The notes under the pieces were generated by a model. That model was not told the origin of the DNA, searched no databases, and saw nothing but the letters and a program-made list of their open reading frames with translations. A stretch of 64,000 nt of DNA from Candidatus Omnitrophota bacterium (GTDB taxonomy: Bacteria > Omnitrophota > Gorgyraeia > Gygaellales > Profunditerraquicolaceae), in contig JACQXK010000009.1 in assembly GCA_016208765.1 (NCBI GenBank), positions 20,819 to 84,818 on the forward strand. The letters run 5' to 3'. This document shows positions 5,108 through 60,337 of this stretch, piece by piece; position 1 is the first letter of the stretch, and the number at the start of each line of letters is the position of its first letter. A program made the translations under genes and the position numbers.

Positions 5108-5456
5108 AAAAAGCGGTTTCTAGCCAGTTTGATTTCATATTAAAAGTATGGTATACTTTTTACAGGAAAGAGGAAAAATTTAATCCCTGCGGTGCGCGTT
5201 GGAGATTTTGATAATTATTGAACCAACATTATTATCAAGGGAGCCCAGAATTCCGCGACGGTTTTCCGTACAGGAGAGGGCACCCACCTGAAACCAACCG
5301 GTTCAGATGTCAACCCAACGGCATTTCCGCGGGGATTTTTTATTGAGGTCACAACTTATGGAGGGAGCAACGCGAACGAACATAAGTTGCAGCGAAGCGT
5401 CCGCGAATTAATACCTCTTCCGCCATATTGGGGGAAGAGGTATATTCATACCCACT

Positions 5457-6782
5457 ATGTCAGATCTTTTCAACGAAGAACAAAACCATAATAATTATAA
5501 AGAGTTGCCGCTTGCAGTGCGTATGCGTCCGCGCACTTTAGAGGAATTTGCCGGCCAGGGGCATATTTTAGGTAAAGGCAAACTTTTGCGCCGTGCAATT
5601 GAAGCTGACCGCCTGAGTTCGCTTGTTTTATTCGGGCCTCCTGGATGCGGGAAAACTTCCCTCGCCTGGTGTATTGCCAATGTTACCAAGGCTCATTATT
5701 TTGCTATTAATGCCGCTACTTCTAATGTTGAGGAGCTGCGTAAAATCATTGCCGCAGTAAAGCTGCGCAGAAAGAATACCGGTAAAAGAAGTATTTTATT
5801 TATTGATGAGATACATCGTTTTAATAAGTCCCAGCAGGATTGTTTGTTGCCGGACGTAGAAGAGGGGAACCCGATTTTAATCGGAGCCACTGTGCACAAC
5901 CCGTATTTTTCTCTAACCTCGGCTCTTTTATCGCGGTCGTTAGTTTGTGAATTAAAGGGTTTAAGCCAAAAAGAGATTGTCCAGGTTTTGAATTCGGCGC
6001 TAAAGGATAAAGAGCGCGGTTTCGGAAACTTAAAAATTAATTTAGATCCTCAGGCGCTGGAATTTTTAGCTAAGACCTGCGAAGGGGATGCCCGTCGGGC
6101 GCTTAGCGCTTTGGAGATCGGGGTCTTAACCACACAAAATAACCAAGACGGGAATATTGAAATCAATTTAGAAGTAGCTGCTGAGTCAATTCAGAAAAAG
6201 CCGGTGGTATATGATAATGCCGGAGATGCGCATTATGACACTGCCTCGGCATTTATTAAATCTATGCGCGGTTCCGACCCGGATGCGGCAATTTATTGGA
6301 TGGCGAAAATGCTCTATGCCGGGGAGGATCCGCGTTTTATCGCGCGCAGGATTTGTATTTTAGCTGCTGAAGATGTAGGCAACGCCGACCCTTTGGCCCT
6401 GGTGCTGGCCAATGCAGCGCTTGAGGTGGCTGAGTTTGTGGGGATGCCGGAGGCAAGGATACCTTTGGCGCAGGCTTGTATTTATGTGTCTTGCGCGCCA
6501 AAATCAAACGCAAGCTATATGGCTATTGACAAAGCCTACAAAGATATAGAAAATGAAAGATTGCAGGAGGTTCCTGAGCATCTTAAGGATGCCTCTTATA
6601 AAGGAGCGGAAAAATTAGGCCATGGCAAAGGATATAGGTACGCGCATGATTATCCTGGCCATTATGTGGACCAGCAATATACGCCTAAGGGCGTGAAATA
6701 TTATGAACCGACGGAAATGGGCTTTGAGGCAAAGATCAAGGAGAGAATGAAAAAACTAAAAAAACAAGGAGAGAAAGAATGA
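5457..6782 (+). CDS. rarA: replication-associated recombination protein A (AAA+ ATPase, MgsA/WRNIP1 family)
   Basis: Walker A LFGPPGCGKTSLA, Walker B ILFIDEIHRFNKSQQD and a C-terminal MgsA-type helical domain. Confidence 0.85.
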   Translation: MSDLFNEEQNHNNYKELPLAVRMRPRTLEEFAGQGHILGKGKLLRRAIEADRLSSLVLFGPPGCGKTSLAWCIANVTKAHYFAINAATSNVEELRKIIAAVKLRRKNTGKRSILFIDEIHRFNKSQQDCLLPDVEEGNPILIGATVHNPYFSLTSALLSRSLVCELKGLSQKEIVQVLNSALKDKERGFGNLKINLDPQALEFLAKTCEGDARRALSALEIGVLTTQNNQDGNIEINLEVAAESIQKKPVVYDNAGDAHYDTASAFIKSMRGSDPDAAIYWMAKMLYAGEDPRFIARRICILAAEDVGNADPLALVLANAALEVAEFVGMPEARIPLAQACIYVSCAPKSNASYMAIDKAYKDIENERLQEVPEHLKDASYKGAEKLGHGKGYRYAHDYPGHYVDQQYTPKGVKYYEPTEMGFEAKIKERMKKLKKQGEKE

Positions 6783-7237
6783 AGAAAATAATTGCAGTGG
6801 TTTGCAGTGCATTTATGATGGTAGCTACTTTAGGTTGCCAAAGCAATAAAACACGGGTAGCAGAAGGTTCGGTAATAGGAGGATTGTTGGGCGGGGCTGC
6901 AGGCGGCATTATCGGGCACCAGAGCGGACACGGCGGAGAAGGCGCTGCAATTGGGATAGCAGCCGGGGCATTGACCGGTGCGCTCATTGGAAGCCAGATC
7001 AACAAACCTGCACAAACAGAAACTGCTGCGCAGGCACAACCGCAGCAGGCAGCTAATCCCAACCAGATGACCCTCCAGCAGGTAGTGGATTTATCCAAGC
7101 AGGGGGTGAGTGAGACGGTGATTATTGATAAACTCAAATCTTCAAATTCAAAATTTAATTTAACCCAGGCTGATATTGATTACCTAAAACAACAAAAAGT
7201 CCCACAGAGTGTTATTGACGTAATGTCAGGAAAATGA
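6779..7237 (+). CDS. glycine-zipper lipoprotein (SlyB/17-kDa-antigen-like N-terminus)
   Basis: Lipobox (ATLGC) followed by a GxxxG-rich glycine-zipper segment and a Q/A-rich linker. Its ATGA start/stop overlap with the next gene suggests translational coupling. Confidence 0.5.
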
Positions 7238-10200
7238 GCACAATGCTTTTAATTGCGATTACCGGCGGAGTGGTGATGATAGGGTATGCGTTATATTCCA
7301 TATTCATCCCCGGCTCCGAAACAAATGAAAAGAAGACGGGGGGGAAGAATTTTTCTGCTCAGGCGGCACTTGTTGTTAATGAGCAAAAAGAGCAAAAGGC
7401 GCAAAAACTTCAGGGGCAAATGAATGTTTTAGAAAAAGAGCTGGTGCGTATTCAGGCAGAAAGCGCTCAGGAAAAGCTGGACATGGAATTGGCGAAAAAG
7501 AAAGAAGCGGAATTAGAATCAGAACTCTTGCGCAGGCAGGAATGGGTGTCTAAATCCGAAGGGATGTTGAAAAAGGTAAAAGATGAAAACCTGGAATTAA
7601 GAAAACATTTTCTGGTTAAGGAGAATCTTTTAGAGGAGGAGTTTGCCAAAAATGTTAATCTGGCTAAAGAAGCTCGTCTGCTTAATGAAAAGATTGCGGC
7701 ATTAGATAAAGAGTTAAAAGAAAAAGCAGAGCAAATTGAGATCCAGAAACATCAAATAGAAAAATACCTAAAAGAGAATAAAGAGCAGTCAGGAATTATT
7801 GCGCAACAAAAAAAGAAGGAAGAATCCAGCGAATGGGTGCCAAAGCAGGATTTTAATAAGCTTAATGAGGAGTATACTGAATTAGAAAAAGACCTGGAAG
7901 CGCGCGATGAGAAACTGCGTATTTTTGCCGAGGAGATCACGCATTTAAAACAGCAGTTAGCTGATAAAAAAATTGCTCAGCCTGTAAAAGAAGAAGTCAT
8001 TATTGAGGAAGCTCCTGTTGAAGAGGTTATCATCAAGGAGCCTGTTGTTCCTGAGGTTCAGGTTGTTGAGCCAGCTCCGGAAAAAGGAGTTTCTCTTGAA
8101 GTTGCAAATGTAGTTGAATCAAATATAGAGGAAGTAACACCGGCTCCTGTTATTGAAGAAAAACCCGCTGAAGAAATACACGAAGAGCCGGAAAAAGAAG
8201 CTAAGAAAAAAGAAGGCGAGTTGCTTCCGGCGGTTAACCTGGAAAAACTGCGTAATATCGGCATCATGGCGCATATTGATGCCGGAAAGACCACCCTTAC
8301 CGAGCGCATCCTTTTTTATACAGGTAAATCTCACAAGATCGGCGAGGTGCACGAGGGCGCTACGCAAATGGATTGGATGAAACAGGAGAGAGAGCGGGGC
8401 ATTACTATTACTGCGGCGGCAACGACTTGTTTCTGGAACAATTACCGCATAAATATTATTGATACTCCGGGGCATGTGGATTTTACAGTGGAAGTGGAAA
8501 GGTCTTTGCGTGTTTTAGACGGGGCAGTGGCAGTGTTTTGCGCTGTAGGAGGCGTGGAACCGCAATCTGAAACTGTGTGGCACCAGTCAAATAAATATAA
8601 TGTTCCCAAGATCGCATTTGTAAATAAAATGGACCGTACAGGAGCTGACTTTTATGCAGTGCTTAAAGGGATAGAACATGATTTGGGAGGAAATGTTATC
8701 CCTCTTGAGGTTCCCATTGGAAGTGAAGATAACTTCCAGGGGGTGGTGGACTTGATTGAAATGAAGGCATATTATTATATTGAAGAAACGCAGGGGAAAG
8801 ATTTTCGTATCGCAGAAATTCCCGCAGAATACCAGGAGAAGGCCAGGGAATACCGCAAGATTTTAGTAGAAAAGGCTGCGAGCTTTGATGAGGCGCTTAC
8901 TCAAAAATTCCTTGAGGCGGAAAGCTCCATAACTACTGAAGAAATTGTAGCAGCAATCCGTAAGGGAACAATTGCCAATAAAGGCGTGCCTGTTTTGTGC
9001 GGTGCGGCGTTTAAGAATAAAGGTATTCAGAAACTGCTTGATGCGGTAAATCTATTTTTGCCCTCTCCGTTAGATCTACCTGCGGTAACCGGGCACGACC
9101 CCGAGGACAAGGAAAAGGAATTTTTGCGCCGGCCGGTGATTGAAGAACCATTCTCCGGGTTGGCTTTTAAAGTTCAGGCAGATCCGCATATGGGAAAATT
9201 AGTTTATGTGCGGGTCTATTCAGGGGTGTTAAATACAGGAACGTATATTTTAAATTCTACAGTTGACAAGAGAGAGCGCGTCGGAAGGATTGTGCGCATG
9301 CATGCTAATCAAAGAGAAAATATTGATTACGCCTGCGCCGGAGATATTGTAGCGGTTGTCGGTTTATCAAATACAATTACAGGGCACACGCTTTGCGACC
9401 CGGGTTACCCGATACTTTTAGAAGCAATCCAGTTTCCTGTGCCGGTTGTGTCATTGAGTATTGCTCCAAAGAGCCGCTCGGATCAGGATAAATTAGGAAG
9501 GGGCCTTGCCAAGCTTGCCGAAGAGGACCCGACGTTCCTGGTGCAAAGCGACGAGGAAACCAAAGAAACAATTTTGACCGGGATGGGAGAGTTGCATTTG
9601 GAGATTATCGTTGACAGGCTTAAGGAGGAGTTTGGGGTAGAGGCAATTGTGGGACAGCCTAAGGTTGCTTATCGCGAGACGATTATGGAGCCTGCCCAAG
9701 GGGAGAGCAAATATATCAAGCAATCCGGAGGCCGCGGGCAGTATGGGCATGTAATGCTGCGTCTTACTCCGCAAACTGCGGGAGAAGGATTTGAATTTGT
9801 AGATAGTATCAGAGGAGGAGCGATCCCGCGGTCATTTATCCCGGCAGTAGAAAAAGGCGTGATTGAAGCAATGCAAAAGGGCGCGTTTGCAGGTTTTCCT
9901 GTTGTGGATGTAAAGGTTGATCTTTATGACGGATCATTTCACGAGGTGGACTCTTCGGAAATCGCCTTTAAGATGGCTGCGATACTCGGGTTTAAGGAAA
10001 TATTTATGCGGGCAAAACCAATTCTTTTAGAGCCCTACATGTCTCTTGAGGTGAGCACTCTTGAGGAGCATGTGAATGGTTGTGTGGGTTTTATTTGTTC
10101 TCGGCGGGGAAAGATTATTAATATTGATGTAAAGGGTAAACAGAAAGTAATTTCTGCTGAGGTGCCCCTTGCGGAAATGTTTGGTTATGTTAGCAGTTTT

Positions 10201-10317
10201 CGTTCTCTAACCAGCGGACGCGCAAACGCGACCATGGAATTCTCCAAATACATGCAGGTGCCGCATGAAATCGCCCAGAAGATCATTGAGGAAAAACAGG
10301 CTAAGGAAAAGAAGTAA
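7234..10317 (+). CDS. elongation factor G paralog with ~330-aa N-terminal TM + coiled-coil + acidic/Pro-rich extension
   Basis: From ~aa 335 there are canonical EF-G motifs ([28 protein letters not shown]) and domains II-V. Upstream, in the same frame with no stop, are a TM helix (aa 5-25), a K/E-rich coiled coil and an [12 protein letters not shown] repeat region. It is not in an rpsL-rpsG-tuf context. Confidence 0.8.
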
Positions 10318-10338
10318 GATTTAGGGCGTCAAGGCATA

Positions 10339-10466
10339 TTTCTCGCAGCACCGCTTGCCCCGCCCCAGCGTGGCGGGGCTGCGCTCGGGCGAAAACTTTT
10401 GCTCTGCCAGACTTCGTTATAGCGGTGCAACCGTGCCCGCAAAAGTTTTCTAACGTGCTGCTCGAA
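10339..10466. repeat. structured intergenic repeat element, copy A (nested inverted repeats; second copy at 51984-52108)
   Basis: ~85% identical to 51984-52108. Terminal arms are ttctcgcagcac / gtgctgctcgaa, with internal stems ccccgcc-ccagcgt-ggcgggg and gaaaacttttgc...gcaaaagttttc. Confidence 0.7.
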
Positions 10467-10494
10467 ATATACCTTGTCACCTCTTAGTTGATAT

Positions 10495-12582
10495 TTGAGT
10501 TTGAGTAATTTTATAGAATTATCGGAGAATAATAAGTTGTCAAAAATAATTGATTACAAAAAAGAATTGAACACGGCGCAATTTGCGGCTGTGCAGTCTA
10601 CTGATGGGCCGCATCTGGTGATCGCCGGGGCCGGAAGCGGCAAGACCAGGGTTCTGACTTATAGGGTGGCGTATTTAGTTGAAAAAGGCATCAGGCCCGA
10701 TGAGATACTGCTGCTTACTTTTACACGCAAGGCATCAGAGGAGATGTTGCGCAGGGCCTCTTTGTTATTGGATGAACGCTGCAATCATGTTTCCGGCGGG
10801 ACATTTCATTCTTTTGCCAACATGGTATTAAGAAAATACGCGCAGGCAGTCGGGATCAGCAATAGTTTTACCATCCTTGACCAGTCAGATGCCGAAGATA
10901 CCGTAAATTTGGTGCGCACTCAGCTCGGGTTCCATAAAACTGATAAACGCTTTCCGCGCAAGGCAGCGCTTCTGGAGCTGATTTCAAAAAGCGTGAATAA
11001 GTCCGAGGATATTGAGAATATCTTGTATGAAGAATACTCTCATTTTATGGAATGGAGCGACGAGGTTAAGAAAATCCGTGATGAATACAAGAAATACAAG
11101 CATCTAAAATCCATGCTGGATTATGACGACCTGCTGGTTTATCTAAAAAATCTTCTTACTACCCACGAAGAGGTGCGATTAACGCTTGCGCGTAAATATA
11201 AATATATTATGGTTGATGAATATCAGGATACCAATAAATTGCAGGCTTATATCGCCTGCCTTTTGGCTTCGGAACATAAGAATATTATGGTCGTAGGCGA
11301 TGATGCTCAGAGCATCTATTCTTTTCGCGGAGCAAATTTTAAAAATATTATAGATTTCCCTAAAATCTTCCCAGGAGCGAAAATAATTGCCCTTGAAGAG
11401 AATTACCGTTCTACCCAGCCGATACTTGATTTGACTAACGCAGTTATCCGCCAGGCGCGCGATAAGTTTGAGAAAAATCTTTTTACGCGTAAGCGAGGAG
11501 ATAAGGCTCCGATTTTTATTGATGCTGAAGATGAGCATGCGCAGTCGCGGTTTATCGCAGATAAGATCTTAGAGCTGCGTGAGGAAGGGGTTGAGTTGGG
11601 AGAGATGGCGGTGTTATTTCGGTCGGGCTGGCACTCTAATGATCTGGAAATTGAGCTTTCAAGCCGGAATATACCTTTTACAAAATACGGCGGGCAAAAA
11701 TTCGTTGAGGCAGCGCACATAAAAGACATTACCGCTTACCTGCGCATAATTTATAATTTATCCGACGAGGTTAGCTGGTACCGTGCGCTTTTATTGATGC
11801 GAGGCATCGGCCCAAAGACAGCCGAGGCAGTTATCCAGCAGATTATTGCCCAGAAAAAAGGCTTAGGCATAGAAGAAAAGTTTTTGCATAAGTCGCAGGA
11901 CTTAAGGCAGCTTTTGGAGCTTTTTTCCAAAGTAAGTTCAGAGAGCCTCAAGCCCGCTGAAATGATAGAAATATTTTTAGGTTACTATCAACCGCTACTT
12001 AAAGACAAATATGATGATTTTCCAAAACGCCTTAACGACCTTGATTCTCTGATGCGCATTGCTGCGCGCTACCGGTCTTTGGAAAGTTTTCTTTCGGACA
12101 TGGCGCTTGATCCGCCGGAGAGAAGCATTGTTGAAGCAGGGTTTAGGGATAAGGATGATTCAAGGCTGACATTATCAACCATACATTCGGCAAAAGGACT
12201 GGAATGGCATACTGTATTTTTAATTTATGTGGCAGAAGGATATATGCCGTCTTATTTGTCATTAGAAAATGAAGATGAGATTGAAGAGGAACGCAGGCTT
12301 TTTTATGTGGCGGCGACACGCGCAAAAGAAAACCTGTTTTTATTAAAACCGCACCTTGACCGCCCGATGCGCGGTATGATGAATGAGGGCCGCCAAATTT
12401 TTACGCAGGTTTCCAGATTTTTGGAGGAAGGAAAGATCTTGGACAGGTTTGTGGATGTGCATGAGCTTGGTCCCCTGGATGCCCTTGATGATCTGGATGT
12501 TGAAGATATCCTTGGCCGCAGGCCTCAGGGAGAAGGAAAGTTTTTTAAAGAAATGCGGGAGTATTTTAATGATGCTCCTTGA
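10495..12582 (+). CDS. UvrD/PcrA/Rep-family ATP-dependent DNA helicase
   Basis: SF1 helicase motifs: GAGSGKTRVLTYR (motif I), MVDEYQDTN (DExx), VGDDAQSIYSFRGA, ENYRST and a C-terminal UvrD_C region. Confidence 0.85.
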   Translation: MSLSNFIELSENNKLSKIIDYKKELNTAQFAAVQSTDGPHLVIAGAGSGKTRVLTYRVAYLVEKGIRPDEILLLTFTRKASEEMLRRASLLLDERCNHVSGGTFHSFANMVLRKYAQAVGISNSFTILDQSDAEDTVNLVRTQLGFHKTDKRFPRKAALLELISKSVNKSEDIENILYEEYSHFMEWSDEVKKIRDEYKKYKHLKSMLDYDDLLVYLKNLLTTHEEVRLTLARKYKYIMVDEYQDTNKLQAYIACLLASEHKNIMVVGDDAQSIYSFRGANFKNIIDFPKIFPGAKIIALEENYRSTQPILDLTNAVIRQARDKFEKNLFTRKRGDKAPIFIDAEDEHAQSRFIADKILELREEGVELGEMAVLFRSGWHSNDLEIELSSRNIPFTKYGGQKFVEAAHIKDITAYLRIIYNLSDEVSWYRALLLMRGIGPKTAEAVIQQIIAQKKGLGIEEKFLHKSQDLRQLLELFSKVSSESLKPAEMIEIFLGYYQPLLKDKYDDFPKRLNDLDSLMRIAARYRSLESFLSDMALDPPERSIVEAGFRDKDDSRLTLSTIHSAKGLEWHTVFLIYVAEGYMPSYLSLENEDEIEEERRLFYVAATRAKENLFLLKPHLDRPMRGMMNEGRQIFTQVSRFLEEGKILDRFVDVHELGPLDALDDLDVEDILGRRPQGEGKFFKEMREYFNDAP

Positions 12583-12696
12583 CAAATGGGGATATAAATG
12601 TTAAGCTTATTCAAGTAAATTAACCCTTTAAGCTGGCCCCGGTGAGGGCGGCAAGGCAAGGAAGAATGAATTGCAAAATTATTATAAACAGGTTAA

Positions 12697-12727
12697 CCTC
12701 CGGCTCAAGAATAGCTGGAGGTTTTTT
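12697..12727 (+). terminator. hairpin + U-tract (terminator of the helicase gene and/or pyrR leader attenuator)
   Basis: cctccggct...agctggagg stem followed by TTTTTT, 15 nt before the pyrR start. Confidence 0.5.
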
Positions 12728-12741
12728 ATTGTAGGAATACC

Positions 12742-13278
12742 ATGAGAGAAAAAGCCAAGATTTTAGATCCAGAAGCAATAAACCGGGCGATGATGCGCAT
12801 TGCCCATGAGATCCTTGAGAAAAATAAAGGCACGGAATCGCTGTGTATTATCGGTATACGCAACCGTGGGGCGTATTTGGCGCAGAGATTAGCAGAGCGT
12901 ATTAAGAAAATTGATGCTGCAGATGTTCCTGTAGGGGTTCTTGATATTACTTTATACCGAGATGATCTTACGCTGATTGCCTCCCAGCCTGTGGTGCATA
13001 AGACAGAGATTAATTTTGACATCAGCGATAAAAACCTGATTTTAGTAGATGATGTTTTATATAGCGGAAGGACGATCCGCGCTGCGCTTGATGCTTTGGT
13101 TGATTTTGGGCGGCCTAAAAGTATTCAACTTGCGGTTTTAATTGACCGCGGGCATCGGGAATTGCCGATTCGCGCGGATTATGTGGGCAAAAACATACCT
13201 ACTGCGCAGACTGAAACAGTTGAGGTCCGCCTTCATGAATGCGACGATAAAGATGAGGTTGTGATTATTGAGAAATAA
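12742..13278 (+). CDS. pyrR: bifunctional pyrimidine operon regulator / uracil phosphoribosyltransferase
   Basis: 178 aa with a PRTase-type motif ([17 protein letters not shown]). It sits directly upstream of pyrB-pyrC. Confidence 0.85.
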
Positions 13279-13301: not shown

Positions 13302-14243
13302 ATGAATTGGAATAAAAAAGATTTATTGGGCCTTGAAGAATTAAGCAAAGAAGAATTAGAACATATTTTGGCCACCGCTGAATCTTTTAAAGAAGTCTCC
13401 ACGCGCGAAATTAAAAAAGTCCCTGCTTTACGCGGAAAAACCGTGGTGAATTTATTTTATGAGCCTTCCACGCGAACACGCGTTTCCTTTGAAGTGGCGG
13501 CAAAAAGATTATCTGCCGACGTGATCAATATCGCTACCGAAACATCAAGCGTAAAAAAAGGCGAAACGTTAATTGATACCGGAAGAAATATTCAGGCGCT
13601 TAAAGCTGATATTATTGTTATGCGGCATAATTATTCAGGGGCAGCGGTAATGCTGGCGCGCCATGTTGATATAAGCGTGGTTAATGCAGGAGATGGCTGG
13701 CATGAACATCCGACACAGGCACTTTTAGATATTTTTACCCTTAAAGAAAAGCTCGGGAGGATTGAGGGTTTGCAAGTGGCGATTGTAGGCGACATTGCGC
13801 ATTCCCGTGTAGCACGCTCAAATATCTGGGGGCTGACAAAACTTGGGGCCGAGGTAACTGTCTGTGCCCCAAAGATTTTAATTCCTCCGGGAATTGAGGA
13901 GATGGGCGCGAAAGTTAGCTTAAATATCAATGAGGCATTAAAAAACGCTGATGCGGTAAATGTGCTACGAATGCAGTTTGAGCGCGATGAATTAAATGCG
14001 TTTCCGAAGCAATTGGAATATTTTAAGGAATTTGGGATCACGAAAGAAAGATTGAAAGAGGCAAAAAAAGGTATAGTTGTAATGCATCCCGGGCCGATAA
14101 ACCGCGGGGTGGAAATGTCCAGTGAAGTTGCTGATGGTGCTAATTCAGTAATTTTGGAGCAGGTGACTAATGGTATTGCTGTGAGGATGGCGGTGTTGTT
14201 TTTAGTTGCACAAGCAAGGGATATTAATGCAAATACTCATTAA
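13302..14243 (+). CDS. pyrB: aspartate carbamoyltransferase catalytic subunit
   Basis: STRTR carbamoyl-phosphate binding motif (EPSTRTRVSFE), HPTQ and HPGP motifs; 313 aa. Confidence 0.9.
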   Translation: MNWNKKDLLGLEELSKEELEHILATAESFKEVSTREIKKVPALRGKTVVNLFYEPSTRTRVSFEVAAKRLSADVINIATETSSVKKGETLIDTGRNIQALKADIIVMRHNYSGAAVMLARHVDISVVNAGDGWHEHPTQALLDIFTLKEKLGRIEGLQVAIVGDIAHSRVARSNIWGLTKLGAEVTVCAPKILIPPGIEEMGAKVSLNINEALKNADAVNVLRMQFERDELNAFPKQLEYFKEFGITKERLKEAKKGIVVMHPGPINRGVEMSSEVADGANSVILEQVTNGIAVRMAVLFLVAQARDINANTH

Positions 14244-15507
14244 AGGCGGCAGGGTGGTTGATCCGGCAAACAATATAGACGGCATTTTTGATATTCTCGT
14301 TGAAAATTCTAAAATTGCTAAAGTGGCAAAGAATATTAAAGATGAAGCTAAATTGGTAATTGATGCTGCTGATAAAATTGTCCTTCCGGGTTTGGTGGAC
14401 ATGCATGTGCATTTAAGAGAGCCGGGTAGAGAAGACAAAGAAACTGTTGAAAGCGGCACAATGGCTGCTGCCCGGGGCGGAGTAACTACGCTTCTGGCTA
14501 TGCCGAATACTTTTCCTGCAATTGATTCAGCTGAAAACGTTTCTCTGTTAAAAGAAATTATTAAAAACAGCGCCAAGGTGAATGTGTTGATTTGCGGGGC
14601 AATTTCCAGGCAAAGGCTGGGAAAGGAACTTACGGATATTGCCGGGCTGCGCTCTGCAGGCGTTGTGGTAATCTCCGACGACGGCTCTTCTGTTGATGAT
14701 CAAGCCTTGCTGCTTGAGGCTTTAAAAAAAGCTAATCAGGAGGATGTTTTAGTATCAAGCCATTGCGAGGATAAGTCGTTATCAGGAAATGGAGTGGTCA
14801 ATCGCGGATTTAATGCTACTCGCCTGGGCCTAAGAGGAATTTCAAAGGAATCTGAATATTTACGGGTAGAAAGAGATATAGAGTTAGCAGAGAAATCCGG
14901 CACAAGAATGCATATCGCGCATGTCAGTTGCAGCGAATCTGTAGAGATCATTGCAAAAGCCAAGAAAAAAGGAGTAAAGGTAACCAGCGAAGCTGCGCCG
15001 CATCACTTTGCCTTAAACGAAGAGGCGGTATTAGGATATGATACGAACATGAAAATGAACCCTCCGCTACGCAGCAAGCAGGATGTAGAGGCGATCAAGA
15101 AAGGTTTAAAGAGCGGAGTAATTGATGCGATTGCCTCGGATCACGCCCCGCATACTGAGAATGAAAAAGATATTGAGTTTGACCGCGCAGAGTTTGGAGT
15201 GATTGGCCTTGAAACCGAATTGTCAGTAGCGATTACAGAGTTGGTAGAGAAAGACGTTCTTGATTGGAAAAAGCTCGTTGAGAAAATGTCATATAACCCG
15301 GCTAAAATTTTAGGTATTGCTAAGGGTGCTCTGGGTGTTGGCAGTGATGCGGACATTGTAATTATTGACCCAAGCAAAGAATGGCTGGTAAAAAAAGAAG
15401 ATTTTTTGTCCAAGTCAAAGAATTCAGCTTTTATCGGCAAAAAGCTTAAAGGAGTAGTTGAATATACGTTCTGCAGTGGTAAGATAATTTATAAAGCTAA
15501 GGAATAA
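14227..15507 (+). CDS. pyrC: dihydroorotase (amidohydrolase family)
   Basis: DxHVHLREPG metal-binding motif plus HIAHVS and DHAPH motifs. The likely start is the ATG at 14227 (MQILIKGGRVVD), overlapping the pyrB end. Confidence 0.85.
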   Translation: MQILIKGGRVVDPANNIDGIFDILVENSKIAKVAKNIKDEAKLVIDAADKIVLPGLVDMHVHLREPGREDKETVESGTMAAARGGVTTLLAMPNTFPAIDSAENVSLLKEIIKNSAKVNVLICGAISRQRLGKELTDIAGLRSAGVVVISDDGSSVDDQALLLEALKKANQEDVLVSSHCEDKSLSGNGVVNRGFNATRLGLRGISKESEYLRVERDIELAEKSGTRMHIAHVSCSESVEIIAKAKKKGVKVTSEAAPHHFALNEEAVLGYDTNMKMNPPLRSKQDVEAIKKGLKSGVIDAIASDHAPHTENEKDIEFDRAEFGVIGLETELSVAITELVEKDVLDWKKLVEKMSYNPAKILGIAKGALGVGSDADIVIIDPSKEWLVKKEDFLSKSKNSAFIGKKLKGVVEYTFCSGKIIYKAKE

Positions 15508-15527
15508 TAAGGGGTTCAGTATTAAAA

Positions 15528-16763
15528 ATGGAATTCATTGCTGATTTTCATATTCATTCAAAATATTCAAGGGCAACCAGTAAGGATATGGATGTTGCCC
15601 ACATTTCTGAATTTGCCAAGCTTAAGGGCATTACCCTGATGGGTACAGGTGATTTTACGCACCACTTATGGCTGGAGGAATTAAAGCATAATTTAGAAGA
15701 TTCCGGGAACGGCCTTTTTAAACATAAAGGGGTTAATTTTATCCTGAGTGCTGAGATAAGCAGCATTTATTCCAAGAATTCAAAAGGTTACAGGATACAT
15801 AATTTAATTTTTGCGCCTTCATTTAAAACAGTAGATAAAATTAATGATGTTTTAGGCAGGTGCGGCAATCTTGCTAGCGACGGAAGGCCGATATTGGGCT
15901 TAGACGCCCAGGAGCTTGCCAGGATAGTTTTTGATATTGATGAAAATTGCATGGTGGTTCCTGCTCATATTTGGACGCCGTGGTTTAGCCTGTTCGGCTC
16001 TATGTCCGGATTTGACAAAATTGAAGATTGTTTTGGAAAAGAAACCGATAAAATTTTTGCCTTAGAAACCGGTTTGTCCAGCGACCCGGGTATGAATTGG
16101 CGCTTAAGCGCTTTAGATAGATTTAGCCTGATCTCTAACAGTGATTCGCATTCTCCGCAGAAGATCGGGCGTGAGGCAAATGTATTTAACTGTGATCTGG
16201 ATTATAAAACGATACGCGAAGTTTTAAAGGCAAAAGACATGAGCAGATTTTTGTACACAATTGAATTTTTTCCTGAAGAGGGGAAGTATCATTATGATGG
16301 CCACAGGCTTTGTGAAACCAGGATGTCTCCAAAAGAAACCAGGAATAATAATGGCAAGTGCCCGAAATGCGGTAAACCTGTAACTGTGGGTGTGATGAAC
16401 CGTGTTGAAAAATTAGCAGACCGCGCAGAAGGCTTTGTTCCTACTGTCAGCATTCCATATAGAAATTTAATTTCTCTTGATGAAATAATTGCTGACGCAA
16501 AAAGTGTTGGGAAGAATTCTATTAGTGTAGAAAGAGACTACCGGAGTTATGTAGCAAAATTCGGGACTGAGTTTGAAATTCTTCTGCGGGCTTCAAAAGA
16601 GGAGTTGCTTAAAGCTCTGCCTGCGCGTGTGGTTGAGGGGGTATTGCGCGTGCGTGAAGGCAAGGTTAATATTAAAGCCGGTTATGATGGCGAGTATGGT
16701 ATTATCTCAATCTTTGGAAACGAAGAAAAAGAAAAAAGCGAGAAACAATTAAGTTTATTTTAA
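15528..16763 (+). CDS. PHP-domain protein with C-terminal zinc ribbon, endonuclease Q-like
   Basis: N-terminal HIHSKYSRATS PHP metal site, further PAHIWTP and SDSHSP His motifs, and a CPKCGKPVTVGV zinc ribbon. This architecture resembles archaeal/Bacillus EndoQ. Confidence 0.5.
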   Translation: MEFIADFHIHSKYSRATSKDMDVAHISEFAKLKGITLMGTGDFTHHLWLEELKHNLEDSGNGLFKHKGVNFILSAEISSIYSKNSKGYRIHNLIFAPSFKTVDKINDVLGRCGNLASDGRPILGLDAQELARIVFDIDENCMVVPAHIWTPWFSLFGSMSGFDKIEDCFGKETDKIFALETGLSSDPGMNWRLSALDRFSLISNSDSHSPQKIGREANVFNCDLDYKTIREVLKAKDMSRFLYTIEFFPEEGKYHYDGHRLCETRMSPKETRNNNGKCPKCGKPVTVGVMNRVEKLADRAEGFVPTVSIPYRNLISLDEIIADAKSVGKNSISVERDYRSYVAKFGTEFEILLRASKEELLKALPARVVEGVLRVREGKVNIKAGYDGEYGIISIFGNEEKEKSEKQLSLF

Positions 16764-16795
16764 AATATTCTTAATCCCGCTTTCCCCTTCAAATT

Positions 16796-16831
16796 GGAAA
16801 CAGTTTCCGCTTTAATCCAGAAACTGTTTCC
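16796..16831 (+). terminator. 12-bp-stem hairpin downstream of the PHP gene
   Basis: ggaaacagtttc-cgctttaatcca-gaaactgtttcc perfect inverted repeat; no clear U-tract. Confidence 0.4.
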
Positions 16832-16883
16832 AGGGTAATCGGGACAGTGGGTCTGGGTCAGTTGTCAGTTGTAATTGAAATAC

Positions 16884-16955
16884 GCCCCTGTCGCCCAATG
16901 GATAGGGCACTGGCCTCCGAAGCCAGTTGTACAGGTTCGACTCCTGTCAGGGGCA
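16884..16955 (+). tRNA. tRNA-Arg (anticodon CCG)
   Basis: Acceptor GCCCCTG/CAGGGGC, anticodon stem CTGGC/GCCAG with loop CTCCGAA, T-arm GGTTCGACTCC; 72 nt, no encoded CCA. Confidence 0.75.
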
Positions 16956-27576: not shown

Positions 27577-28191
27577 ATGGCAAAAATCAAATTAACTAAG
27601 GGAGAATTAAAGCGCCAGCGTGATGCCTTGGCGCAATACCAGAGGTATCTTCCCACATTGCAATTAAAAAAACAGCAGCTGCAGTTGGAGATTCTACAGC
27701 AGGATAATTTGCTTATTGACAGAGAAAGCTCGTTAGCCAAGAAAAAAGAACAAGCCAAAGTTTGGGCAGGGCTTTTATCAGGCCCTGTGGATGTGAGGCC
27801 ATGGATTAAGCCGGCGCGCATTATATCCGGAACAAAAAATGTAGCCGGAGTTGATATGGCTATTTTTGAAAGAGTTGAGTTTGCCGCAGCAGAATGTGAT
27901 TTGTTTATTACTCCTTTGTGGGTTGATTTTGCGATTGAAGCTCTGCATAGTTTAGTGAGTTTAAAAAACGAGATCATGCTTATAAAAGAAGGGATAGCTG
28001 TTTTAAAACACGAGTTGCGCATTACAACCCAAAGGGTCAATCTTTTTGAAAAAGTAAAAATCCCTGAAACCGAAGAAGCAATTCGTTTAATCAAGGTTTA
28101 TATCGGTGACCAGATGGCAAATGCCGTCGGAAGAAGTAAGATTGCCAAAAGAAAAATAGAAGAAGCTGTTTTTGCAGGAGCCCTAGCATGA
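27577..28191 (+). CDS. atpD: V-type ATPase subunit D
   Basis: 204-aa coiled-coil protein (KLTKGELKRQRDALAQYQRYLPTL) in operon position after B. Confidence 0.8.
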   Translation: MAKIKLTKGELKRQRDALAQYQRYLPTLQLKKQQLQLEILQQDNLLIDRESSLAKKKEQAKVWAGLLSGPVDVRPWIKPARIISGTKNVAGVDMAIFERVEFAAAECDLFITPLWVDFAIEALHSLVSLKNEIMLIKEGIAVLKHELRITTQRVNLFEKVKIPETEEAIRLIKVYIGDQMANAVGRSKIAKRKIEEAVFAGALA

Positions 28192-29963
28192 TTATAGCAA
28201 TGAAAAAAGTTGCAGTGATTATGCAGGCAAAAGATTCTGCGCAGGCGCTAAAGGCGCTGCGGTCTTTTGGAGCGGTGCATGTAGAAAATCAGCAACCGCC
28301 AAAAAGTGCTAATCTAAACAACCTGCTGGATGATTATGCGTTAGTCCAACAGGGGCTTGAAGTTTTTTCTGAGGAAGAATTTATTGAGCACTGTCATGGG
28401 GATTTAAGGCACAAAGAAACTCCTGATTGGAAATTAACCTGTCGCCATGCACTGGATCTCTGGAAGCGCATTGATCATCTGGAAGGCTACTCTTTTATTT
28501 TAAACCGAGATATCAAGGAATGGGAAAAGTGGGGAGATTTTGACCCGCAGATAGCAGGCCAGCTATTAAAAAAGAATATCTTCTGCAGTTTATATAAGAT
28601 CCCGTTGAAAGATTTGGCAGGTTTGTCAGGCGGCTATGTAATAAAAAAAATTTATCTTGAGGAAAATATTGCATACTGCGCAGTTATTTCGCGCACAAAA
28701 CCGGAGCTTAATTTTAAAGAGATTGAATTGCCGAAGATAAGCCTGTCTACAATGAAAGACAAGCTTGCTGAGAATAAATTGACAATAGACAGGCTAAGGC
28801 AGGAATTGCATCAGCAGCTTTGTTTTCGCGGCTCATTTGTGAGGGCCGAGGTTCAAATAGAAAAAGAAATTGAATTTGAAAATGCCTTAAGCGGTATGGC
28901 GCAGGAAACTGAACTGTCTTATTTGGTGGGCTTTGCTCCCCGGGAGTGCGAGACACAATTATTGGATTTGGCCAAAAAAGAAAAGTGGGGGATTTTGATC
29001 ACTGATCCGTCTGATGAAGATAATGTGCCGGTTGCAATTCGTAACCCGAAGTGGATTGCCTTAATTAGCCCGGTATTTAAGCTTTTAGAGATCCTTCCCG
29101 GATACCGTGAACTGGATATCAGTTTGTGGTTTTTGTTGTTTTTTGGGATTTTCTTCGGGATGCTGATCGGGGATGCTGGTTATGGTTTAACTTACTTTTT
29201 GCTTACTCTTTTTGTTCATGCTAAATTCGGGAAGAAAGTAAAAGATAAGTCGCCCTTTTTTCTCTTTTACCTTTTAAGTTTCTGCGCTATTATATGGGGG
29301 CTATTAACCGGTGTGTTTTTCGGGCAGGAGTGGCTGCAGAAGATTGGATGGAAGCCGCTTGTACCCGCCTTAAATGATGCAAGGATAATCCAGAGTTTTT
29401 GTTTCTTGCTCGGGGCGGTGCATCTTTCTATTGCTCATATCTGGAAAATAATTTTAAAGATCCCCTCTTTGTCGGCCTTGGCTGAATTGGGGTGGGTAGG
29501 TATTTTGTGGGGCGCTTTTTTTCTTGCACGTTTTCTAATACTTGGGTACGAATTTCCTTTCTTTGGAAAATGGCTAATTTTCGGCGGGATAAGCCTTGTC
29601 ATTCTTTTTACGCAGCCGCAGAAAAATATCCTTAAAGCAATCGGTTCCGGGTGCGGTACGCTTGCCTTGAATCTGATGAATAATTTTACCGACGTGGTTT
29701 CGTATGTGCGCCTTTTTGCCGTTGGTTTGGCCGGGGTTGCAATCGCGAATACTTTTAACAGTATGGCAGCAGGCATACGCGGCGAGAGCATCCTGGGGTT
29801 AATATTGGCAATAGTTGTTGTTTTGTCTGGGCATTTGTTAAACATTGTTTTGGGATTAATGTCGGTGCTGGTGCACGGTGTAAGGCTTAATGTCCTGGAA
29901 TTTTGTTCTCATGTGGGAATTAGCTGGAGCGGCACAGCCTACAAACCATTTAAGGAAAATTAA
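28188..29963 (+). CDS. atpI: V-type ATPase subunit I (a-subunit)
   Basis: 591 aa with a soluble N-terminal half and a polytopic C-terminal half containing the conserved Arg region (VSYVRLFAVGLAG). Confidence 0.8.
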   Translation: MIIAMKKVAVIMQAKDSAQALKALRSFGAVHVENQQPPKSANLNNLLDDYALVQQGLEVFSEEEFIEHCHGDLRHKETPDWKLTCRHALDLWKRIDHLEGYSFILNRDIKEWEKWGDFDPQIAGQLLKKNIFCSLYKIPLKDLAGLSGGYVIKKIYLEENIAYCAVISRTKPELNFKEIELPKISLSTMKDKLAENKLTIDRLRQELHQQLCFRGSFVRAEVQIEKEIEFENALSGMAQETELSYLVGFAPRECETQLLDLAKKEKWGILITDPSDEDNVPVAIRNPKWIALISPVFKLLEILPGYRELDISLWFLLFFGIFFGMLIGDAGYGLTYFLLTLFVHAKFGKKVKDKSPFFLFYLLSFCAIIWGLLTGVFFGQEWLQKIGWKPLVPALNDARIIQSFCFLLGAVHLSIAHIWKIILKIPSLSALAELGWVGILWGAFFLARFLILGYEFPFFGKWLIFGGISLVILFTQPQKNILKAIGSGCGTLALNLMNNFTDVVSYVRLFAVGLAGVAIANTFNSMAAGIRGESILGLILAIVVVLSGHLLNIVLGLMSVLVHGVRLNVLEFCSHVGISWSGTAYKPFKEN

Positions 29964-57415: not shown

Positions 57416-60337
57416 ATGCATAGAAGAACCTCAAAAATCTTAGCTATAATTTTGTCGTTTATCTTAATCTTCCAACAGTCTGGCTTTGCCCAGATTGCTG
57501 CTCAACTGGATATTGCTGGGTATTTTATCTCTCTTCAGAACGGTGTAGCCCAAGATAGATTCCGTCCTTTGCATTTACGGTATCTTCACTACAGCCCCGA
57601 AGAGAATAACTTCAGGCTCCTTTTAGACAAGGGCAATATTAAGGACCTAAAAGACCCCAACGTAGAGCAGGCCACCAAAGAGCTGTTGAATTACTTCTTT
57701 ATAGGCGTTACTCTCCCTAATGATTCCTTCTGGGTAAACCTAAGACCAGACTCCCCAGATAACATCATTGATCCGTGGCTTGCCCAGACCGACGTAGGTC
57801 GTATCCTTCTTGAAGCAGACCTGCAACTAAAGAAAGACACCGCCCTTTATACCTCGCCCCAAACCCCCGAAGGTAGGGAATACTGGGATAAACTCTATAG
57901 GAAAGCAGGAGAACTCTTCGGGTTGGATAATGTAACTATTCCTACACTTACTCGCCCTTGGATAGTGCCAGATGAAATCATCGTCCGAGAAACCCAAGAC
58001 AACGCCTATATCTATAAAGCCACCCTTAAAGTAATGCTGGAGCAGGACTACCTCAAGGACCCAAGCACCCATAACTTCAATGACCAACGCTCCAAACAAC
58101 TCAATGAATATTCCTCACAACTTATCCGAGACCGTATCATCCCCAAACTCGCCAAGGAAGTAAATACCTCTAAGCGTTATGCTCCTTTAAGGCAGGTTTA
58201 CTATTCTTTAATCCTCGCTCAATGGTTTAAGCAACAGTTTGCTGGCAAGAATACCACTTACTCTTCGCTCATTGACCGTAGAAACCTTGCTGGTCTTACC
58301 TCCCAACAAACCTGGTCTAAGACTACTTACTTTCAAGAATACCAAAAATCCTTTAAGGATGGCGAATATAATATCAAAGAGCAAATCTATACGCCCTCTG
58401 GTCAGACAATAAGAAGTTACTTTTCAGGGGGGATTGCCGTAACTACAAAAACGATTACTGCTGCTAAAGTATCCTCACCCGCAGGTGAGCCACTGGTAGT
58501 CCCAAATTATACGAAGGAAGTTTTAGCGTCTGGCACACCAGAGAGGCTTGACATAAGATTAGAAAGTAAGCAGCCACCTGATGGTAGAGCCAGCGAACTT
58601 TTTGCCAAAGATGAAAAACCATATTTCGTTATAGTAAACAAAAAAGATTACTTTGGCAAATTTACTGAAACTGCTGTTAATGTTTTGATGGCATTAAAGG
58701 AGGCAATTGAAATACCTAGTGATAAGCGAGCAAGTAGAATATCATTAATAGTTAAGAAATACGGGTTTAATGAACAATTGAGTAGCCATTTTAGTGAGGG
58801 TGTGAAGGGAACATCTATGAGAGGGGGCGATTCTTCACAGGAGGGATTTTCTTTTGAAGCAGTAAGGTCTGTATGTTCTATTCTTACTTATTATTATCCA
58901 GAGTTTGCCGATATAAGAGCTGAATATGATGTTATTAGTGAAATTGCTTTAGCTAGTGGAATGCCGATAAACAAGGAATTAAAAAATAGACTACAGAAAG
59001 TTATGGAATACTTGGAAATAGTATTGTCTGGAAAGGAAGACCCAGGCACCGTATATGACAAGCTTCAGAATGAACTGACAGAAGATAATACTTATACGGT
59101 TATTTTGCTCCTAAAATGGTGTGGCAATGTTGCAGAACTAGACAACTATCCAAATGAACAGCAAAAAGCAAGAGTATTTCTGAAATATTTTACCGGAAGG
59201 TATCTCAATGAGTATAAAGATGTATTAGATGCTTTTGCAGATTTTGTTTTTGGTAAAGTCGCGACTGCTCAAAGCAGGGTTTCTCATTTTGGGGGAGATG
59301 AGAGCGTTAAGGTAGCTATAATGCTGACAGGAGCACAGCAATTGGGGAATTGGTTAAAGGCAAAAGCACAAGCTTCAGGAAAGAAAATTGTTTTTAAGGA
59401 ATTACTATTGACAATGGCAATGGTAAATTCTCTTGAGTATTTTGTAGATACGGATACAGTATTTTTAACGCAACAATCAGAAGAGTTTATGCGTAGATAT
59501 TTGTCAGAAAGCGGTATATTAACAAGCGAAACCAAACACGTAGTTTTTGTTGACACTGGCTTTAAGGGGTCACTAAACCAATTCATGCATAGAGACCTTA
59601 GAGATAGAAACATTGGAGAAGACTTTCTATTGTTAGGTCAGTTTGCTTCATCTTTCCAAGAATATCTTGCCTCTGGATTAAATAAACAAAGCGGTTGGCA
59701 GGGTGATGAAAAAAGACTACGTAGATTCATCTTTGTTATGGATGATGGCTTTGAGGCATCTACGACTTCCGCAGTGCGATTCCACGATGGAATACAAGTT
59801 ACTGTTGCTTCTACGCCTCGTCCTTGGTTTTGCGCGTTAGTAAAAAACGAGATAGAAAAATTAGCAGGAGTAATGCCAGAGAGACCTGCTACTGATTTGC
59901 CACAAACCAATTCTGATTCTCAAGCATCTTCTGTTGTTGGTGGTATTGATTTCCGTAACCTACCTATCGTTACGCAGGCAATAACTAACTTAAAATTAAG
60001 CTCCTCTTCGGCTATGTCTATGGTTAAGCTACAAGATATTAACCTTAATCAGGAGTTAGGGGATATCCAAAAGACGGTAGAAGCCGGAATTGTCCCCTCT
60101 ACAGATAGAATCAAGGAGTATGTTGCCAGATCTTGCCTTAAAGGAAATTTAGACGCCCAGAAAGTCGTCTCTTGCATTGCCAATATGCTAAGGCTAGAAG
60201 AAGAACATTGCGTTTCAACCGACCCAATGTTACGAGATATCTTAGTTGTGCTTGAGTCAAACAGGTCTCTGGAAAGTCTTAGGGCTATTTTTGTGGATGC
60301 TAAGCCAGAAAAACAACAAACATTTCTTCTACCTTAA
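57416..60337 (+). CDS. large secreted protein of unknown function (973 aa)
   Basis: N-terminal signal peptide, no recognised motifs. The first ~400 codons favour C-ending codons (AAG, GAC, CCC, ACC); the remainder is AT-rich like the host genes. Confidence 0.5.
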   Translation: MHRRTSKILAIILSFILIFQQSGFAQIAAQLDIAGYFISLQNGVAQDRFRPLHLRYLHYSPEENNFRLLLDKGNIKDLKDPNVEQATKELLNYFFIGVTLPNDSFWVNLRPDSPDNIIDPWLAQTDVGRILLEADLQLKKDTALYTSPQTPEGREYWDKLYRKAGELFGLDNVTIPTLTRPWIVPDEIIVRETQDNAYIYKATLKVMLEQDYLKDPSTHNFNDQRSKQLNEYSSQLIRDRIIPKLAKEVNTSKRYAPLRQVYYSLILAQWFKQQFAGKNTTYSSLIDRRNLAGLTSQQTWSKTTYFQEYQKSFKDGEYNIKEQIYTPSGQTIRSYFSGGIAVTTKTITAAKVSSPAGEPLVVPNYTKEVLASGTPERLDIRLESKQPPDGRASELFAKDEKPYFVIVNKKDYFGKFTETAVNVLMALKEAIEIPSDKRASRISLIVKKYGFNEQLSSHFSEGVKGTSMRGGDSSQEGFSFEAVRSVCSILTYYYPEFADIRAEYDVISEIALASGMPINKELKNRLQKVMEYLEIVLSGKEDPGTVYDKLQNELTEDNTYTVILLLKWCGNVAELDNYPNEQQKARVFLKYFTGRYLNEYKDVLDAFADFVFGKVATAQSRVSHFGGDESVKVAIMLTGAQQLGNWLKAKAQASGKKIVFKELLLTMAMVNSLEYFVDTDTVFLTQQSEEFMRRYLSESGILTSETKHVVFVDTGFKGSLNQFMHRDLRDRNIGEDFLLLGQFASSFQEYLASGLNKQSGWQGDEKRLRRFIFVMDDGFEASTTSAVRFHDGIQVTVASTPRPWFCALVKNEIEKLAGVMPERPATDLPQTNSDSQASSVVGGIDFRNLPIVTQAITNLKLSSSSAMSMVKLQDINLNQELGDIQKTVEAGIVPSTDRIKEYVARSCLKGNLDAQKVVSCIANMLRLEEEHCVSTDPMLRDILVVLESNRSLESLRAIFVDAKPEKQQTFLLP

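Follow-up and report, generated by a model that had tools for sequence, protein, structure and literature searches.

Elongation factor G (EF-G) is regarded as a very abundant, freely diffusing cytoplasmic factor. Some of the proteins with which it can be compared are found at the membrane: LepA/EF4 has been reported as stored at the E. coli membrane, and FtsY, the GTPase of the signal recognition particle receptor, is held there by an N-terminal, often very acidic region, in some species with a transmembrane helix. E. coli initiation factor 2 (IF2) occurs as isoforms that arise from in-frame internal starts in infB, and in ZipA, TonB and RNase Y a transmembrane helix at the N-terminus leads into a coiled coil or a spacer, charged or rich in proline, with the globular working domain at the distal end. 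Here we describe a gene of Candidatus Omnitrophota, at 7234..10317 on the forward strand of a 64,000-nucleotide stretch of contig JACQXK010000009.1 (this whole stretch is called the window), whose single open reading frame (ORF) encodes a predicted N-terminal transmembrane helix, a ~200-aa helical stalk, a ~80-aa Glu/Pro-rich spacer and a five-domain EF-G.

With canonical EF-G (fusA, TIGR00484; PMC4342817) the fused protein shares the five domains, the GTPase motifs, an equivalog-level score and very strong purifying selection; it differs by 333 extra N-terminal residues and by a position outside the rpsL-rpsG-fusA-tuf operon. The closest genetic precedent is a near-identical EF-G pair, as in P. 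aeruginosa EF-G1A/EF-G1B (PMC3832671); gcEFG2 (PMC4342817) is a further case of two near-canonical, conserved copies in one genome, the arrangement that we found in two Omnitrophota genomes, L079 and L098 (L and P numbers are our labels for genome loci and homologous proteins, respectively). Those copies are soluble and of normal length, whereas here an anchoring module has been added to an almost unchanged EF-G. EFG II/EF-G2, spdEFG1/2, mitochondrial EF-G1/2 and Tet(M)/Tet(O) belong to the same EF2 superfamily and provide precedent for a division of tasks between copies, but the fused EF-G scores far under the cut-offs for EFG II/EF-G2 and Tet and shows no sequence specialisation.

The membrane-linked and multi-product systems are likewise only partly similar. 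FtsY is also a translation-linked GTPase at the membrane, but it belongs to an unrelated family, acts in targeting rather than elongation and has no long helical stalk. LepA/EF4 is related to EF-G and membrane-associated, but is peripheral, without a transmembrane anchor, and of another subfamily. IF2 is comparable as a translational GTPase, in its N-terminal region, which is long and poorly conserved, and possibly in having nested products, whereas the gene described here has no conserved internal start and encodes a predicted membrane anchor. The anchors of ZipA, TonB and RNase Y have a similar layout with other working domains, and no sequence similarity to them was detected. The trGTPase survey PMC4342817 lists EF-G, spdEFG1/2, gcEFG2, EFGII, Tet and lEFG, and the words 'membrane' and 'transmembrane' are absent from it. 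Text searches of the literature found no description of a membrane-anchored EF-G, in agreement with an earlier sequence-only reading of this DNA, which had proposed that tethered EF-Gs are an undescribed class.

Results

A canonical EF-G behind a long N-terminal extension

The ORF starts with an ATG five codons past an in-frame upstream stop and continues for 1027 aa without an internal stop. Its parts are as follows.

7234..10317, +, full fused ORF, predicted membrane-anchored EF-G; 1027 aa plus stop; fusion kept in 79/80 loci
7237..7305, +, predicted N-terminal transmembrane helix, aa 2-24; Kyte-Doolittle, AF2 helix; predicted N-terminus outside
7306..7362, +, basic disordered juxtamembrane segment, aa 25-43; pLDDT <50 at residues 26-47; K/R cluster
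7363..7974, +, X-module helical stalk, aa 44-247; AF2, invariant columns, homologues, dN/dS 0.04-0.18
7975..8220, +, acidic proline-rich flexible spacer, ~aa 248-329; composition, length range, dN/dS 0.17-0.83
8221..8223, +, in-frame TTG, codon 330, candidate internal start; weak AAGG 4 nt upstream
8233..10299, +, complete EF-G, aa 334-1022; TIGR00484, Pfam domains; dN/dS 0.03-0.08

The Pfam domains of EF-G were found in order and all far above threshold: GTP_EFTU at residues 338-610 (PF00009), domain II at 639-722 (PF22042/PF03144), III at 734-807 (PF14492), IV at 809-928 (PF03764) and V at 931-1016 (PF00679). The G domain carries the G' insertion, and the GTPase motifs and the domain IV tip loop SGGRGQYGH are intact in the translation. 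Membership in the EF-G family was judged by the NCBIfam equivalog TIGR00484, which has a curated cut-off of 659.4 bits; the full protein scored 1028.8 bits and residues 330-1027 scored 1031 bits. The claim of the sequence-only reading that a complete EF-G is fused in frame to an N-terminal extension, in a protein of 1027 aa, is therefore upheld.

Models for the other subfamilies did not recognise the protein. The EF-G2/EFG II models NF009377 (499-501 against a cut-off of 890) and NF058620 (488-491 against 1000), the tetracycline ribosomal protection model NF012153 (380-382 against 775) and the LepA model TIGR01393 (169 against 534) all gave low scores, and the TypA and RF3 models were likewise far under their cut-offs. 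TIGR00484 scores were 1031-1058 bits for fused copies and 1075-1095 bits for the free EF-Gs of Omnitrophota described below; the two groups are separated by seven diagnostic columns, all conservative, and by no clade-specific indels, and their conservation is about equal (0.82 for fused against 0.84 for free EF-G). All of the sequence tests place the EF-G part with canonical EF-G, and it looks catalytically intact; the whole protein lies outside the described paralogue classes. Because the EF-G sequence is unchanged, ordinary translocase and recycling chemistry would be expected of it.

Conservation of the fusion

We scanned one genome per species and took the best 80 loci, all from Omnitrophota metagenome-assembled genomes (MAGs), some of which carry the label 'uncultured Planctomycetales'. 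Their identity to the window protein, over residues ~1-1027, is 55-85%. All but one of the 80 have an uninterrupted fusion, in a single stop-to-stop frame of 995-1121 codons with the P-loop at residue 311-437, and nearly all of the intact loci show an ATG, then a hydrophobic helix, then a Lys/Arg cluster. At least 79 species of Omnitrophota thus retain the fusion, far more than chance would give. Among the 120 closest proteins in the database, most have a length of 985-1060 aa under JGI, ENA or Logan pipeline calls.

Ratios of nonsynonymous to synonymous substitution rates (dN/dS), computed separately for the three parts of the protein in 13 close pairs of fused genes, were 0.04-0.18 for anchor plus stalk, 0.17-0.83 for the spacer and 0.03-0.08 for EF-G; all three are under purifying selection. 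Within the limits of sequence comparison, the objection that a sequencing error might have joined two genes fails, as the open frame is kept in 79 independent assemblies with dN/dS below 1.

Three interrupted copies were seen. The single exception among the 80 loci, L076, has an in-frame stop (~9125) within an oddly mutated switch II, in which DTPGH has become EPPGH, and L005 has an in-frame TAG at 7177..7179 in the G domain of an otherwise intact fused gene; these stops could mark early pseudogenes or be local errors. In L097 the fused gene is split (7100..8044 and 8001..10136) by a frameshift at A8/A7 runs in the spacer, which is either a homopolymer assembly error or slippage-prone sequence.

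A predicted membrane tether

The most hydrophobic 19-residue windows begin at residues 2-7, with a Kyte-Doolittle maximum of 2.0 at residues 5-23, and an N-terminal hydrophobic helix is present in 75 of 80 orthologues. Sec signal peptide and lipoprotein signatures were not found: residues 1-5 hold no Lys or Arg, and the basic residues come after the helix. Across orthologues the mean Lys+Arg count is 0.03 in aa 1-5 against 5.1 in aa 25-45. Because basic residues are absent before the helix and about five follow it, the predicted topology is N-out, C-in, with EF-G in the cytoplasm; the helix would be an uncleaved anchor that leaves the bulk of the protein cytoplasmic.

An AlphaFold (AF2) model of the N-terminal region, built from a 14-sequence alignment (mean confidence score, pLDDT, 84), places a helix at residues 2-24, disorder at 25-43, a long helix at 44-200 (157 residues) and, beyond a kink at W201-V-P203, another helix at 204-247 (44 residues). 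Over stalk residues 71-190 the pLDDT is 94-98. Residues W104, F137, W201, F207, N211 and Y214 of the stalk are invariant in our alignment of the module (A1), and the stalk, mostly alpha-helical, is probably a dimerising coiled coil.

The spacer of the window protein (~250-329) includes the peptide quoted in the sequence-only reading; of its 80 residues, 24 are Glu, 15 are Val and 10 are Pro. Junction and spacer counts were made on 80 fused genes, namely the 79 intact scan loci and the window. Across orthologues the spacer is 45-134 aa long (median 77) and consists of 25% Glu, 16% Pro, 12% Ala and 10.5% Lys; its sequence is unconserved, while its composition is constant and it is in frame in all 80. 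Since length and sequence vary while composition and frame hold, we take the spacer to be a translated flexible linker. A tandem-repeat scan found no DNA tandem repeat in it, and the repeat is a compositional or short peptide repeat at the level of protein. The N-terminal make-up given by the sequence-only reading thus stands for the transmembrane helix, the helical stalk and the Glu/Pro-rich segment; the stalk is ~200 aa rather than the ~250 claimed.

Homologues of the N-terminal module

For the first 333 residues no Pfam family scored above threshold, and only sub-threshold coiled-coil noise was seen. The N-terminal module (X) nevertheless defines a family of its own. It has 64 close homologues (E 5e-57 to 3e-25), all of Omnitrophota type, recognised by the N-terminal transmembrane helix and the motifs RR.EWV, EEF.KNV, QKHQIE and SEW[VI]PK.[ED]FN.LNEEY..LE, which the window protein also has; alignment A1 has 22 invariant columns. 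An exhaustive profile search extended the set to 254 proteins, including a distant ~225-aa family.

Whether these homologues are always fused had been raised with the sequence-only reading, and they are not. Stand-alone X genes were verified for P0032 and P0037 (311-345 aa), in the gene order trkH, small ORF, pheS, pheT, rarA, X, cyclophilin, uvrD, with no EF-G; many fused genes share this order. In a neighbour-joining tree of X modules, ~45 stand-alone proteins form one derived clade nested among fused genes, with their nearest fused relatives 57-74% identical and the window ~40% identical, and these proteins keep an acidic tail resembling the spacer. Because of the nesting and the retained tail, the simplest reading is that the EF-G part was secondarily lost in this sub-clade. 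When the loci of free EF-G genes were searched for X remnants, none was found beside them.

Not every short X match is a stand-alone gene. We rejected the interpretation of all 250-345-aa matches in this way, as several are fragments 82-100% identical to fused genes. Members of the distant ~225-aa family (P0405, P0411, P0420, P0429, P0433, P0446, P0461, and L096 74..751) have a transmembrane helix, a coiled coil and both Trp motifs, and no acidic tail or EF-G; one lies on a 1.5-kb contig next to a gene read as CBS/GAF from its translation. Protein P0009, on a JGI contig of 5,471 bp, has an X module followed in frame by the antisense translation of an EF-G G domain, and looks like an inverted-join assembly chimera.

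Annotation and internal start sites

The GenBank entry for the window gene, MBI4706777.1 ('elongation factor G', 917 aa, from a 220,517-bp contig of a groundwater MAG), begins at Met111 and therefore leaves out the anchor. Exact look-ups with the protein in its 1027-aa and 917-aa forms matched no contig. For many orthologues the annotated length is 693-721 aa, although the contig concerned also holds the long ORF, and for this reason we rejected the ~700-aa 'elongation factor G' matches as unfused genes. In L061 the 25 codons before the G-domain motif RNIGI contain no ATG, GTG or TTG, and length arithmetic puts the start of the 698-aa model at an Ile codon; at least this one NCBI model therefore needs a non-canonical start. 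The short EF-G models are family-guided choices of start site and not separate genes. As a consequence of this N-terminal trimming, the fusion is invisible in GenBank protein records.

The sequence-only reading had pointed to a TTG with a plausible ribosome-binding site, 10 codons ahead of RNIGI, from which a second product might arise. The TTG is indeed there, at 8221-8223 (codon 330); upstream of it is only an AAGG at 4 nt, and several other in-frame candidates are at least as good. About half of the window genes have no Shine-Dalgarno match at all, and the genome uses such sites weakly. The scan for promoters and terminators found no promoter-like site just upstream of codon 330. The free EF-G of L079 begins MARQISLEKVRNIGI, which matches this -10 position. 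A start codon at -10 was found only in the window and the near-identical P0305 (TTG) and in their nearest relatives L009 and P0066 (ATG).

In the wider family the picture is different. Among the 80 fused genes compared, 25 have no ATG, GTG or TTG in the 25 codons before RNIGI, and the only conserved junction ATG is the Met within NIGIMAHID, a start that cannot give a functional G domain. The hallmark of IF2-type nested isoforms, a conserved in-frame internal start with a ribosome-binding site, was not found at the junction. Because no internal start codon is conserved, the product at the level of the family is the full-length protein, and two products are not a family feature; within the small sub-clade of the window, internal initiation may occur but lacks support.

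Free EF-G genes in Omnitrophota

Omnitrophota also have free EF-Gs of ~698 aa. In trees of the EF-G domains, 79 fused copies form one clade and 60 free copies another, with a mean EF-G identity of 74% among fused copies, 77% among free copies and 68% across the two clades; L079 has its fused copy placed beside the free clade. Both kinds of gene occur together in two genomes. In L079, the complete chromosome CP070797.1, a free EF-G (6310..8406) is followed by a SpoU gene, a peptidoglycan-binding gene and a fused EF-G (10001..13156), and in L098, a JGI contig, the order is free EF-G (10001..12097), SpoU-type methyltransferase, peptidoglycan-binding protein and fused EF-G (13695..16940). Comparison of L079 with L098 gave a dN/dS of ~0.04 for each EF-G copy, and both copies have similar GC content at third codon positions. 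Purifying selection acts on each of them, and where the two exist together the tethered form is therefore not redundant.

The term paralogue, used in the sequence-only reading, is thus proven for these two genomes of a basal lineage, each with a free 698-aa EF-G and a fused gene. In one other sub-clade, secondary loss of EF-G points to coexistence with a free EF-G; in the main fused group, the nested loss and the possibly pseudogene-like lesions of L005, L076 and L097 suggest the same. That the window's genome holds a second EF-G we regard as moderately probable.

The window gene has rarA, a glycine-zipper gene and uvrD as neighbours and lies outside the rpsL-rpsG-fusA-tuf operon, the usual though not defining location of fusA; that it does not follow rpsL-rpsG had been stated in the sequence-only reading. 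This is a weak argument for paralogy, because the free EF-Gs that we inspected, those of L079, L087, L088 and L098, also lie outside str operons (in L099 the end of the contig truncates the upstream side). According to a 2026 preprint, S12-S7-EF-G-EF-Tu operons are present on several of the complete chromosomes of Omnitrophota.

Two genomes, L039 (18571..20505) and L045 (19870..20538), have a third EF-G-like gene ~8 kb downstream of the fused one, divergent in sequence and encoding 644 aa. It has the P-loop GHAQSGKTT, scores 650.5 with TIGR00484, just under the cut-off, and passed NF009891.

Neighbouring genes

Two genes precede the fused gene in the window.

5457..6782, +, rarA/mgsA (AAA+ ATPase); Pfam MgsA_C, AAA_assoc_2, AAA
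6779..7237, +, glycine-zipper protein; PF05433 and PF13488; stop overlaps the fused-gene start (ATGA)

The best promoter-like site, at 5208-5235, lies ahead of rarA, and about half of the orthologous loci have rarA directly before the fused gene; it is a conserved upstream neighbour and the probable first gene of the transcription unit. The glycine-zipper gene, which the sequence-only reading had taken as a translationally coupled lipoprotein gene and set against the usual rpsL-rpsG context, does match PF05433 and does overlap the fused gene. It carries little weight as an argument: a homologue between rarA and the fused gene was found in the window and L009 only, among 80 loci, and because of this confinement we regard it as a lineage-specific insertion and not a conserved partner. 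The C-terminal half of its product is without an assigned function.

The window is otherwise of housekeeping character (trkH, pheST, pyrBC, carB, V-type ATPase, dxs, gltX). Pfam gave no match at E<=1e-5 for three of its long ORFs, at 15528..16763, 28188..29963 and 57416..60337 (411, 591 and 973 aa). L097 has a 276-aa ORF with a faint LAGLIDADG match (11293..12123) between nifU and a 5-formyltetrahydrofolate cyclo-ligase gene; it is absent at the syntenic loci L001, L003 and L005.

Discussion

Omnitrophota have a core translation factor in a domain architecture that is both new and conserved. On balance we favour the view that the gene makes one single-pass inner-membrane protein, in which an active EF-G is tethered to the cytoplasmic face of the membrane through the X stalk and the spacer. 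X would have been fused in frame, anciently, to a copy of fusA, and the fusion kept in a large Omnitrophota clade. A short N-terminus would lie outside the cell, followed by one transmembrane helix, with stalk, spacer and EF-G in the cytoplasm. The EF-G part would do its normal jobs, GTP-dependent translocation and, with ribosome recycling factor, ribosome splitting, while tied to the membrane by a tether of a few tens of nm. A pool of EF-G would thus be kept close to the membrane, where it could serve, for instance, ribosomes engaged in the synthesis of membrane or secreted proteins, and where a free EF-G also exists the tethered form would have a function of its own.

EF-G with N-terminal tags is routinely active in vitro, and an N-terminal tether should therefore not block ribosome binding. 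At 0.15 nm per residue the two stalk helices span ~24 and ~7 nm; a few nm more come from the spacer, up to ~29 nm if fully extended, which gives a modelled reach of roughly 35-60 nm. Most Omnitrophota cells are ~0.2 um across (PMC10066038). A shell of 35-60 nm takes up roughly 70-90% of the volume of a sphere with a radius of 100 nm, and because this reach covers most of the cell volume, tethered EF-G could act on the majority of ribosomes and still be concentrated near the membrane.

The same geometry makes workable a different proposal, in which the organism has no canonical EF-G besides the fused one: fusA would have become anchored in the main clade and the free copy lost. In degree of conservation the EF-G part equals the free EF-G of Omnitrophota, with no sign of specialisation, and the basal lineage with both copies sits between the fused (79) and free clades, which fits a sequence of duplication, fusion and loss of the free copy. 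No free EF-G was found within the window or within 10 kb of 78 fused loci, and none of 22 free-EF-G accessions falls in the same genome-sized accession block as any of 21 fused-gene accessions, a sparse comparison with little power. In the deep lineages L074 (8693..9775, -) and L048 (13557..14612, -), the fused EF-G is followed directly by a polyprenyl synthase gene on the opposite strand, as is the free EF-G in L088 (10994..12040, -), which may be positional orthology. Against a sole tethered EF-G stand the two genomes that hold both copies, the ~45 X proteins without EF-G nested among the fused ones, where the loss needs another EF-G, and the operons reported in the 2026 preprint for several complete chromosomes. 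We consider that the fused gene is possibly, though rather less probably than the tethered paralogue, the only EF-G of its organism.

Two further accounts dispense with the full-length protein as the main product. Initiation at TTG 8221 could yield a free 698-aa EF-G with the long form as a minor product, much as infB yields IF2 isoforms in E. coli. The -10 start codons of the window, P0305, L009 and P0066 do stand at the free-EF-G start position, and in a genome that makes weak use of Shine-Dalgarno sites a poor ribosome-binding site is not decisive; yet the codon is limited to this small sub-clade, 25 of 80 genes have no start within 25 codons of RNIGI, the AAGG is no better than at other in-frame codons, and no promoter-like site lies just upstream. 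The purifying selection on the N-terminal part and spacer, their unbroken frame in all 80 genes, and the ~700-aa NCBI models that share contigs with long ORFs, of which at least one (L061) needs a non-canonical start, likewise make two products from one frame improbable. The other account, that mis-assembly, sequencing error or an over-extended call joined an upstream coiled-coil gene to fusA, can point to a database that holds the parts separately, as partial 250-345-aa X proteins and ~700-aa 'elongation factor G', and to the frameshift that splits L097. We give it almost no credence, since 79 independent assemblies from many projects share one open frame despite ~45% N-terminal identity and a variable spacer, all three parts have dN/dS below 1, several short X entries are 82-100% identical fragments of fused genes, and the ~700-aa entries reflect the choice of start site on contigs that hold the long ORF.

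Several points also count against a tethered second EF-G, the explanation that we prefer. All of the genomes are uncultured MAGs, and the membrane topology of the fusion protein and the dimerisation of its stalk are predictions. In the window and its nearest relatives, a start codon stands exactly where free EF-G begins, and a free product may arise there. The lesions in L005, L076 and L097 could mean that the EF-G part is dispensable, or could be errors, and in the sparse accession comparison no free and fused genes share a genome-sized block. The purpose of the tether is speculative.

The novelty of the architecture would lie in the site of EF-G action, together with whatever the conserved X stalk binds. 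The fusion also exposes a blind spot in annotation, as it disappears from view where start sites in GenBank are chosen by family and these genes are cut to ~700-917 aa. If the tethered protein is made as proposed, its retention in a large clade of ultra-small bacteria would show that spatial restriction of a core elongation factor can occur, and these organisms would offer a natural system for studying the closeness of translation and membrane in nano-sized cells, the division of work between tethered and free EF-G, and the binding partner of the X module. Were the fused gene instead the sole EF-G, all translocation and ribosome recycling in ~0.2-um cells would be carried out by an anchored factor, which would represent a new spatial organisation of bacterial translation.

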